Positions 1 through 2,024 of a stretch of 2,024 bases of DNA are shown in pieces. Source of the DNA: a virus (Duplodnaviria; Heunggongvirae; Uroviricota; Caudoviricetes); the IMG/VR virus record IMGVR_UViG_2778261418_000020, positions 1-2,024 of that record. One strand, written 5' to 3'. The notes below the pieces were generated by a model. It did no database searches, was not told the DNA's origin, and was given only the letters and a program-made list of their open reading frames with translations. The translations under genes and the position numbers were made by a program. Position 1 is the stretch's first letter, and every line of letters begins with the position of its first letter.

Positions 1-201
1 TTACCCATTGGCGCGGCTTAAGAGCTTATTTTTGAATTCACAATGGTCACGATATAACCATCTTGCTCGCCCGTGGATAACTTTGGCTTTAGGCAGGTCT
101 CCGGACTTAATCCGGTCATAGATGAAGGTTTTACCGAAGCCAGTATCGGCCATGATGAATTTCAAATCAACCAGGGAATCAGGCTGTAGTTCGTGTTGCA
201 T
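1..201 (-). CDS. AlpA-family small DNA-binding protein, excisionase-like (Xis/AlpA type), 66 aa
   Basis: Complete ORF with ATG at 199-201 and TAA at 1-3. A GGAG lies 9 nt upstream on the minus strand (plus 216-219). The stretch LKFIMADTGFGKTFIYDRIKSGDLPKAKVIHGRARW fits the AlpA/excisionase helix-turn-helix pattern (TG..x.T.Y..I..G.FP....G.R.RW). Size and position at the low-coordinate end of an early operon are typical of xis preceding int. Family call is by eye. Confidence 0.7.
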   Translation of the reverse strand: MQHELQPDSLVDLKFIMADTGFGKTFIYDRIKSGDLPKAKVIHGRARWLYRDHCEFKNKLLSRANG

Positions 202-246: not shown

Positions 247-267
247 AAAAAACCGCCATCAGGCGGC
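247..267 (-). terminator. Rho-independent terminator candidate between the zinc-ribbon gene and the excisionase-like gene
   Basis: Minus-strand RNA reads GCCGCC-UGAU-GGCGGU followed by UUUUUU: a 5 bp all-GC stem (plus 253-257 pairing with 262-266) with an optional closing G-U, a 4-nt loop (258-261) and a 6-U tract (plus A-run 247-252). It sits 65 nt downstream of the stop at 333-335 and about 45 nt upstream of the ATG at 201. Confidence 0.55.
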
Positions 268-332
268 TTGGTGTTCTTTCAGTTCTTCAATTCGAATATT
301 GGTTACATTGTTTTCATATATGAATAAATAAA

Positions 333-512
333 TTAGCTTTTTTCGTTGCCTTCGCGTTCTTTATTAATTTTGACAAAATCGTTTTTACCACGCTCTCCAA
401 ATGCGTCTTTAGAGTCGTTGTATCCGCAATCGCAGCACACATAATCATCAGACCATCCACGCATTGTTTTTTCTTTTGCAATATTTCCAGAACCGCATTT
501 TGGACAAGACAT
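333..512 (-). CDS. Small Cys4 zinc-ribbon protein, 59 aa (MSCPKCGSGN...CCDCGY...), function unknown
   Basis: Two cysteine pairs (CPKCG and CCDCG) spaced about 20 residues apart, typical of a zinc ribbon. ATG at 510-512 is preceded by a consensus Shine-Dalgarno GGAGG (plus 520-524) with a 7-nt spacer. The ORF track begins 11 codons earlier at TTG 543-545, which has no RBS, so the ATG start is preferred. Stop TAA at 333-335. Lysine/glutamate-rich C-terminal tail. Confidence 0.6.
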   Translation of the reverse strand: MSCPKCGSGNIAKEKTMRGWSDDYVCCDCGYNDSKDAFGERGKNDFVKINKEREGNEKS

Positions 513-608
513 ATCACTACCTCCAAAGCATGAGTGAGATGACAACGTAACATTGATTGGAGATTAACAATAGATTGCTGATGTAAAAGATATGTATAAG
601 CTTCGCTT

Positions 609-1016
609 TCAAAGTGGAGGCTCTGGTAGCGGCATCCAGTGTGTGACATTGCTAATCAGGTCATATTCATTAGTTTGAGGATGGTTGCCGCTATCATCTC
701 CATATTTAAGACTCTCCATAAAACCATAATGCTTATTCCCATTAACTCTCACAAAACCGTAATAAGCTGGTATAACGCCGATCTCACACGTAACCAGTAA
801 AGGAAAACTAGTTCTCCAATTTAGCTCGCCAATTACAGGCATTCGCTCACTACAGCTTATCCAACCATCCTGAGTTACCGGAGGGTTGCCAGCCTTGCGC
901 ATGGCAATCTCCACGATTTCAACCATATCTCCTGGCGGAATTTTGCAATGCTGACCAAAGCGCTTCTGCTGTCTGGCATATTCGAGGATGTGCTCCAGCT
1001 TGGTACGATTAATCAT
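609..1016 (-). CDS. DUF551-domain phage protein, 135 aa
   Basis: C-terminal half has the DUF551 signature recalled from lambdoid prophage proteins (GWISCSERMP...VTHWMPLPEPP). ATG at 1014-1016 overlaps the upstream stop (ATGA at 1013-1016). Shine-Dalgarno GGGAG at plus 1024-1028, 7 nt upstream of the ATG. Stop TGA at 609-611. Confidence 0.75.
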   Translation of the reverse strand: MINRTKLEHILEYARQQKRFGQHCKIPPGDMVEIVEIAMRKAGNPPVTQDGWISCSERMPVIGELNWRTSFPLLVTCEIGVIPAYYGFVRVNGNKHYGFMESLKYGDDSGNHPQTNEYDLISNVTHWMPLPEPPL

Positions 1017-1396
1017 GATTTATCTCCCTTAAGCATGGCAGCACGGCAGGCGTTCCAGCCAGCTGTTCGCCCAAGCGCGTAAACTTCAGATGGCTCAAGA
1101 TAATCAATGTCCTGCCCGTCCTCATCGTCGTTCTCAGGTAATGCAGCAGGTACTACCGGTACTGGCGGGGCGGCGTAGACTTCAATAATCCCATTATCAA
1201 TAGGCCATTCTCCATCCTTGAGATAGTCACTTGTGCCGTCAACTTGCTGTTCAGCAATGTGGAATGCACCAACTGGCTCTGCCTCAAGCGATGCCAGTGC
1301 AATTCGTGCCAGTTCCATTTGTTCGCCACGAGTAAGCCCGTTTTCAAGCGGATTTTTAATGAACAATTCAATACGTTCTTTGGTAATAGTGGTCAT
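1013..1396 (-). CDS. Hypothetical phage early protein, 127 aa, with acidic proline-rich linker; possible Ead/Ea22-like C-terminal motif (unverified)
   Basis: Complete ORF with ATG at 1394-1396. Shine-Dalgarno AAGGA at plus 1404-1408 with 7-nt spacer, overlapping the stop codon of the upstream gene. Stop TGA at 1013-1015 overlaps the next gene's ATG. Predicted helical N-terminus (LTRGEQMELARIALASLEA), then AAPPVPVVPAALPENDDEDGQDIDY linker, then GWNACRAAML tail. No family assigned with confidence. Confidence 0.65.
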   Translation of the reverse strand: MTTITKERIELFIKNPLENGLTRGEQMELARIALASLEAEPVGAFHIAEQQVDGTSDYLKDGEWPIDNGIIEVYAAPPVPVVPAALPENDDEDGQDIDYLEPSEVYALGRTAGWNACRAAMLKGDKS

Positions 1397-1406
1397 TTGT
1401 TAGTCC

Positions 1407-2024
1407 TTAAACTGCTAGTTGCAATTGCATTTCAAAGCGGTCGCGTTGTTCACAATACGCAAGAGAACCAGGGCTATTGTGTGCCTCAATCCGTTCTACC
1501 ATTAATGCTGCGCGTGTCTCTTTACTTGCAGGTGCATAAGCCCCAGACCAGGCTTTATCAATACCGATGTTTCGAGCGACGTTCGTACTATCTGCGCTGG
1601 CTAAGGGTAATTTTGTGAATATCAGCGGATTTAACATGCGCAATCCATGTAGTTTCGTAACCGGCTGACCATGCCCATCAACAATGTGACGAATCAGGTC
1701 TTTCATTCTGGCTACCGCAAGAGTTGGGCGCTTTACGTCATAGTCGCCACAACTACCGATAGCCACTCGCGGAAACTCATTGCACAAATGAATAAATCGC
1801 TCGTCACTTTCATTCATGTGCCACACTGGAACGCCAGCTAGTTTTCCGTGAGGCCACTCATTCAGAAGCGCATCATTTTCCTCCTCTCCGCCATCAATAA
1901 CATCCGGGATAATGGCAAAATCGAATCCTGGGTGATTCTTCCAGCGAGCAACAAACTCGTAGTAATCGCTCCAGTCGATTTTGTTTTTGCCAGCTGCTTT
2001 CCAGGCGGTGAATGCACCGTTGTC
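1407..2024 (-). CDS. TGT-fold (queuine/tRNA-guanine transglycosylase-like) protein, candidate phage DpdA-type DNA transglycosylase; partial, 5' end outside window
   Basis: Open minus-strand frame with no stop from 2024 down to TAA at 1407-1409, giving 205 codons in the window. The ORF track starts at an internal GTG (1824-1826), but the frame is open upstream to the window edge, so the true start is beyond 2024. Motifs in TGT order and with roughly TGT spacing: DNGAF (2010-2024) versus TGT DSGGF; FDFAIIPD (1902-1925) versus TGT IVMIFDE; AIGSCGD (1743-1763) in the glycine-rich position; LHGLRMLNP (1626-1652) versus LMGVGKP; SADSTNVARNIG (1563-1598) versus TGT DMFDCVMPTRNARNG, which holds the nucleophile Asp. 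Compared against E. coli Tgt from memory only. Confidence 0.55.
   Translation of the reverse strand, partial: DNGAFTAWKAAGKNKIDWSDYYEFVARWKNHPGFDFAIIPDVIDGGEEENDALLNEWPHGKLAGVPVWHMNESDERFIHLCNEFPRVAIGSCGDYDVKRPTLAVARMKDLIRHIVDGHGQPVTKLHGLRMLNPLIFTKLPLASADSTNVARNIGIDKAWSGAYAPASKETRAALMVERIEAHNSPGSLAYCEQRDRFEMQLQLAV

Follow-up and report, generated by a model that had tools for sequence, protein, structure and literature searches.

Does the partial gene at the edge of this stretch of phage DNA (2,024 nucleotides in all, referred to below as the window) encode a DpdA-like enzyme of the tRNA-guanine transglycosylase (TGT) fold, and from where would a phage without its own preQ0 genes obtain the base to be inserted? 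The gene lies at positions 1407-2024 on the minus strand. Read from 2024 to 1407, the window translation contains no internal stop and yields the 205 C-terminal residues (residues 47-251 of a 251-aa protein), ending with a TAA stop codon at 1407-1409; the ORF overruns the window edge and its first 46 codons lie outside. The partial translation opens with DNGAF and contains the segments FDFAIIPD, VAIGSCG, KLHGLRML and ADSTNVARNIG. On the basis of DNGAF, FDFAIIPD and ADSTNVARNIG, together with a glycine-rich and an LMGVGKP-like segment, a first-pass annotation had named the gene a DpdA-like transglycosylase candidate. All of these elements were found to be present, and the motif assignment proved essentially right.

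The 618 bases that fall within the window were found at 100% identity within an intact 756-nt gene of many complete E. coli genomes, and the full ORF beyond position 2024 was obtained. It encodes an intact 251-aa protein (WP_000582234.1), labelled 'hypothetical protein' in E. coli RefSeq; in an E. coli prophage locus with identical DNA (L001) it occupies positions 12001-12756. Of 5426 complete E. coli genomes, 203 carry a copy at 95% identity or more and 204 give any match; many unrelated strains share the intact ORF at 100% identity. The DpdA-like family to which the candidate belongs comprises 825 clusters at 50% identity.

Family assignment and predicted active site

Residues 1-248 of the complete protein are matched by PHROG 887, 'queuine tRNA-ribosyltransferase' (E = 2.3e-103). 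A tblastn search of 50,697 phage records with the candidate matched 132 records. The matches included the DpdA proteins of Pantoea phage MED16 (38% identity, E = 2e-34), Salmonella phage 7-11 (36%, E = 2e-24), Pseudomonas phage Iggy (26%, E = 1e-5) and Pantoea phage Vid5 (25%, E = 6e-4). MED16, 7-11 and Iggy are phages with measured 7-deazaguanine DNA. Comparison of the family profile with Iggy DpdA by hhalign gave a probability of 98.8% (E = 8e-17). In the viral structure library BFVD, every named match at E ≤ 1e-3 was a phage 'queuine tRNA-ribosyltransferase', and RefSeq phage records, including that of BTP1, give the orthologue the same name.

Pfam (searched with the partial and the full-length protein; none at E ≤ 10), NCBIfam and PADLOC returned no relevant match, and searches of the PDB by phmmer and with a 52-sequence profile gave only chance matches to GCN4 coiled coils. 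These negative results carry no information, as the same searches also miss the validated Iggy DpdA; the MED16 and 7-11 DpdAs escape Pfam too. A comparison by hhalign of the family profile against one single E. coli Tgt sequence, rather than a diverse TGT alignment, gave no match. The profile search against the TGT Pfam family that had been suggested for this gene gave no match; the PHROG family was clearly matched. Sequence comparison supports the candidate as a minimal, 251-aa, single-domain phage DpdA from the DNA-acting branch of the TGT superfamily.

To gain more insight into conservation, 52 family representatives with 33-53% identity were aligned. D47, H172, S189, D191 and S192 are invariant in this alignment, and P86, D87, H115, G136, G173 and L174 are conserved to at least 90%. 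The putative catalytic Asp residues are thus retained, with D47 and D191 invariant and D87 at 90% or more. Invariance of active-site residues at 33-53% identity points to purifying selection on catalysis, and judged from the alignment the motifs of the candidate are not due to chance.

A 94%-identical full-length orthologue was modelled with AlphaFold together with 51 diverse relatives (pLDDT 95.9, pTM 0.91). As the first-pass annotation had anticipated, the model belongs with TGT-type proteins: it consists of eight beta/alpha units, forming a (beta/alpha)8 barrel most similar to TGT-family structures. The conserved residues lie at the C-terminal ends of strands beta3 to beta8. By position and motif, three Asp residues are placed after beta3, after beta4 and on beta8, as in the TGT superfamily.

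In bacterial DpdA (PMC10164549), the acid/base is Asp95, with Phe99 four residues on; the base is recognised by Asp130 and His181 and stacked upon by Leu236. The nucleophile is Asp256, and beta6 leads into a Gly-rich loop. Equivalences between these residues and those of the candidate were inferred by motif and strand position. D47 (codon 2022-2024, minus strand; LDNGAF, end of beta3) is the putative counterpart of Asp95 and of the general acid-base of TGT, and F51, four residues past D47, matches Phe99. D87 (codon 1902-1904, minus strand; IIPDVI, just past beta4) would correspond, tentatively, to the base-recognising Asp (DpdA Asp130, TGT Asp156), as hhalign to Iggy DpdA aligns the segment around D87 with an offset of three residues. 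H115 (codon 1818-1820, minus strand; VWHM, end of beta5) is likely the counterpart of His181. The codons of H172, G173 and L174 (1641-1649, minus strand; KLHGLRML, beta7) specify a putative counterpart of the LMGVG/Leu236 base-stacking segment, which aligns to KVHGFGL of Iggy. D191 (codon 1590-1592, minus strand; SADSTN, beta8) is the putative nucleophile, corresponding to DpdA Asp256 and TGT Asp280, and aligns to SCDSS of Iggy. A conserved His at position 196 of a reference sequence separates DpdA/DpdA1 from DpdA2 (PMC6884629). In the comparison with Iggy DpdA, H172 (KLHG) aligns with KVHG and may be the corresponding residue.

The fold and catalytic residues are common to tRNA TGTs as well, and the enzyme might thus act on RNA, exchanging guanine in host or phage tRNA and retuning translation during lytic growth. 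The family name used by RefSeq and PHROGs, 'queuine tRNA-ribosyltransferase', would agree with such an activity, as would the presence of a tRNA-Asn gene in BTP1, which carries a 93%-identical copy of the candidate gene. Queuosine is normally found in four tRNAs, of which tRNA-Asn is one. However, the family names were carried over from the superfamily, the protein is a 251-aa barrel alone, with neither the zinc subdomain nor the C-terminal tRNA-binding parts, and the closest relatives for which any data exist are DNA-modifying phage DpdAs. We therefore consider an RNA target very improbable. In BTP1 (L006), tRNA-Asn is encoded together with tRNA-Thr at 36889-37041, and its occurrence beside a dpdA-like gene in one genome is probably a coincidence.

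Precursor supply and neighbouring genes

If the candidate inserts a 7-deazaguanine into DNA, a source of the base is needed. The absence of preQ0 biosynthesis genes from the 1.4 kb downstream, as noted in the first-pass annotation, was confirmed, as the four window ORFs that follow the candidate include no que gene. It extends much further: no que gene is annotated within 12 kb on either side of the gene in the E. coli prophage, upstream included, or in the whole BTP1 genome, and neither the prophage arm nor BTP1 has an annotated gene for FolE, QueD, QueE, QueC or an amidotransferase. Related loci were gathered with a 10-sequence alignment, which gave 80 viral contigs with 71-99% identity, extending up to 10 kb per side and totalling 1.08 Mb. 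A tblastn search of these 80 contigs with E. coli QueC, QueD and QueE, the FolE, QueD, QueC and QueE of Iggy and a phage QueD gave 0 matches.

The E. coli host has queC, queD and queE. When DpdA of phage 9g was expressed alone in E. coli, 0.03-0.3% of the G in plasmid DNA was replaced by preQ0 made by the host (PMC6884629). Since the host carries these genes and 9g DpdA can use host-made preQ0, supply of preQ0 by the host is plausible.

A partner gene, such as an amidase, a transporter or an ATPase, was sought by clustering, across the 80 loci, every ORF on the same strand up to 3.5 kb from the dpdA-like gene. No cluster occurred in more than 30 of them, and the commonest neighbours were EaA- and Ead/Ea22-type genes. 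The dpdA-like gene stands by itself as a module of a mosaic region.

These neighbourhoods also bear on the idea that the TGT fold has been repurposed for something other than base exchange in nucleic acids. Binding or transfer of a protein-linked deazaguanine (as by Cap10 of type IV CBASS), sequestration of 7-deazaguanine precursors used by host defence systems or excision of guanine only would be examples. Against such a function, the surroundings contain neither a CD-NTase gene nor a QueC-like Cap9/QatC gene, QueC found 0 matches in the 1.08 Mb, and no neighbour is shared by more than 30 of the 80 loci. Moreover, the protein is homologous in sequence to phage DpdAs, as against 10% identity to Cap10, and the nucleophile and acid/base Asp are strictly conserved, as in a working transglycosylase. 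A repurposed fold is thus very improbable.

In temperate Caulobacter phage DMCA, which has an integrase, a 37%-identical homologue directly follows a QueD-like gene (the pair at L007, 5705-6726) and is therefore not a pure singleton. The QueD-like gene is short (98 aa), and its stop codon overlaps the start codon of the homologue. This adjacency ties the wider subfamily to 7-deazaguanine metabolism.

In 9 of the 80 loci (for example L066, 7555-9609), a 684-aa ORF lies no more than 3.5 kb from the dpdA-like gene, on its upstream side in 7 loci and on its downstream side in 2. Its N-terminus resembles a DNA cytosine-5 methyltransferase (…GSVCSGIEAAS…), and it may be a second DNA-modification gene of the same region.

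Operon and prophage setting

The five ORFs of the window all lie on the minus strand and are closely packed. The next gene in the operon (1013-1396, minus strand) starts 10 nt past the stop codon of the dpdA-like gene and encodes a 127-aa protein of unassigned function with an EaA-like N-terminus. It matches phrog_60, 3323 and 5117, all of unknown function and all matched over their first parts only. A neighbour of the same kind lies downstream in 30 of the 80 related loci. The N-terminus of the 127-aa protein (MTTITKE...) is common to far longer EaA/DUF550-type proteins (361 aa in L017), and the ORF looks like a short or recombinant form of an eaA module; its counterpart in the E. coli prophage locus L001 is flagged as a pseudogene.

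The 127-aa ORF overlaps by ATGA with a gene for a DUF551 protein (609-1016, minus strand), which is followed by a gene for a small zinc-ribbon 'Eag' protein (333-545, minus strand). The last gene (1-201, minus strand) is of the excisionase/TorI type, named 'response regulator inhibitor TorI' by RefSeq on identical DNA and matched by phrog_66 (excisionase); with it the early-left operon ends on the att-proximal side. An intrinsic-terminator-like hairpin (250-269, minus strand), AAGCCGCC-TGAT-GGCGGTTT followed by TTTCTT, separates the Eag-type gene from xis/torI within an otherwise single apparent operon. By analogy with the lambda leftward operon, it could be a regulated or antiterminated site.

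Sigma-70 promoter-like sites were absent from both strands of the window (positions 1-2024; 0 versus 4.0 ± 1.8 expected from shuffles), which fits a stretch inside a long operon read from a distant promoter. Upstream of the gene, the E. coli prophage with identical DNA carries ead/Ea22-like, anti-RecBCD, exonuclease, SSB, Rad52-type recombinase, kil, ral and repressor genes. In the complete genome of Salmonella phage BTP1, a 93%-identical orthologue occupies the same place, between ead/Ea22 and eaA genes. This gene order identifies the locus as the xis-proximal portion of the early-left operon in a temperate phage of HK620/P22 type. The earlier description of an integrase/excisionase-proximal early operon of a temperate phage therefore holds, with the TorI/excisionase gene at 1-201 and the HK620/P22-like gene order behind it.

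The window itself is a particular mosaic of ea-region modules. Its parts are each common at 95-100% identity, with junctions near 245, 645 and 1400, and none of the 5426 complete E. coli genomes and none of the 50,697 phage records contains 80% or more of it in one piece. A hitch-hiking or decaying accessory gene, currently inactive, might be expected in so mosaic a region, where the whole window is contiguous in no complete E. coli genome or phage record; the RefSeq label 'hypothetical' in E. coli and the lack of modification in mycobacteriophage Orion, which has a singleton DpdA (PMC6884629), would fit, but an ORF that is intact and identical in so many unrelated strains, in a family of this breadth with invariant active-site residues, makes this the most improbable of the explanations considered.

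Known relatives and proposed mechanism

The gene had been put forward as the strongest candidate for an unusual system in the window. In this respect the expectation was not borne out. The gene type is already known: phage records name it, and it was catalogued in 2019 by Hutinet et al., who described a group of 76 phages with 'DpdA only' (group 3) and proposed reliance on host preQ0 (PMC6884629). Supplementary Data 1 of that study lists BTP1 (SIU02687), SPN3UB, SfI, HK106, SEN1 and 7-11 as having DpdA, and the singleton DpdAs of Gammaproteobacteria phages form a separate sequence cluster (PMC6884629). The candidate is 93% identical over all 251 residues to the proteins of BTP1 and SPN3UB, and 68% identical to that of Shigella phage SfI. 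It shares with the BTP1-type singletons the early-left position between ead/Ea22 and eaA-type genes in a phage without que genes. We found no substantive difference from BTP1, SPN3UB, SfI and coliphage HK106; the candidate is an E. coli allele in another mosaic of neighbours. In the searched literature, no experiments on lambdoid/P22-type, BTP1 or SfI orthologues were found.

The nearest relatives with data are the DpdAs of MED16 and 7-11, which are homologous over most of the length, have LDNGAF, IPDxI, HGLR and ADS in common with the candidate, and likewise occur without a phage preQ0 pathway. They belong, however, to virulent or otherwise unrelated phages and to a different branch of the family. 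DNA of 7-11 contains 50 dADG per 10^6 nt, about 0.02% of G (PMC6884629). In MED16 DNA, dADG amounts to 354 per 10^6 nt (0.13% of G), accompanied by traces of dPreQ0; this DNA was cut by most enzymes tried, including at sites with the GA and GGC motifs that are modified in CAjan. Because the tested relatives, at 36-38% identity, carry only sparse dADG and MED16 DNA is still cut, a protective role is doubtful for the clade of the candidate. By the same analogy, the expectation in the first-pass annotation that modification protects the phage genome from host restriction is weak for this gene.

DpdA1 of Queuovirinae-type phages (9g, CAjan, Iggy) has the DxGAF, HG and (S/C)DS motifs in common with the candidate. 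In contrast, these phages co-encode FolE, QueD, QueE and QueC, replace 16-32% of G and are clearly protected against restriction. The Iggy protein is also longer (312 aa) and about 26% identical to the candidate.

Bacterial DpdA of the Dpd system (PDB 7ui4) is a 413-aa protein that includes the 128-residue insertion Ins8, depends on the ATPase DpdB and is encoded in a dpdA-K cluster; the candidate has none of these features. An assignment to the bacterial Dpd system was rejected: the gene is surrounded by phage ea, recombination and xis genes, and neither DpdB or a dpd cluster, nor Ins8, nor a PADLOC match was found. A canonical tRNA TGT (PF01702) was rejected likewise, as the protein has no Pfam match, no CxCxxC...H zinc site and no C-terminal tRNA-binding region. 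The PF01702 miss by itself does not exclude DpdA membership, since validated phage DpdAs miss this family too. The candidate has five scattered Cys residues and no zinc motif in 251 aa, compared with CDCYTC in the 375 aa of E. coli Tgt. TGT and ArcTGT carry the zinc site and tRNA-binding extensions; the candidate, about 125 residues shorter, has neither. CBASS Cap10 was also rejected, with no CD-NTase or QueC-like Cap9 neighbour and 10% identity.

We consider it likely that the candidate is a DNA-guanine transglycosylase, expressed from the early-left operon, which swaps a small fraction of G for a host-derived 7-deazaguanine. This proposal starts from the observed homology, fold, active-site conservation, operon position and lack of a phage pathway. 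Upon infection or induction, the gene would be transcribed within the leftward early operon of a P22/HK620-like phage. D191 would attack C1' of deoxyguanosine in duplex DNA and expel guanine, with D47 acting as acid/base. D87 and H115 would read the incoming base, stacked on F51 and L174, and the 7-deazaguanine base would then replace guanine. The base, preQ0 or its amide ADG, would come from the host queuosine pathway; it would have to be host-supplied because the phage has no folE, queD, queE or queC.

The substrate, the DNA target, the extent of modification and the benefit proposed here are inferred by analogy. As in the tested singleton-DpdA phages, modification is probably sparse and motif-limited, affecting at most a few G per thousand. 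The benefit would at best be narrow protection against particular nucleases.

The tested singletons carry dADG rather than dPreQ0, without a known amidase, which leaves room for another substrate or a non-protective role. A further reading, possible but rather unlikely, is that the lone DpdA of lambdoid/P22-like prophages inserts another host-derived base (ADG or CDG) directly or converts the nitrile itself, and that the marks act as a signal and not as a bulk shield. If this were true, direct insertion or nitrile conversion would explain dADG without an amidase, and the few marks could mean self-marking, control of packaging or replication, or evasion of one specific defence system.

The assignment matters for annotation: in about 4% of complete E. 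coli genomes the gene is labelled 'hypothetical protein', although it falls into a catalogued DpdA group. The largest group of phage DpdAs is the one without its own preQ0 pathway, and its tested members hold traces of dADG. An inducible lambdoid prophage in E. coli, where the que genes can be deleted, would be a convenient system for asking what lone DpdAs insert, where and why.

Unusual forms of the gene were also observed. In a 415-aa protein (P0074), an N-terminal segment of about 165 residues is fused to a complete DpdA-like domain with 69% identity to the candidate. The segment may be Ead/Ea22-like, given that such genes lie upstream in related loci, and the protein could be a true fusion or reflect a missed stop codon or frameshift between neighbouring genes. 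A 1719-bp record labelled 'Staphylococcus phage SA 1298 Kay' (OR850331.1) contains an enterobacterial copy of the candidate gene with 93% protein identity and is probably a mislabelled or contaminant sequence.
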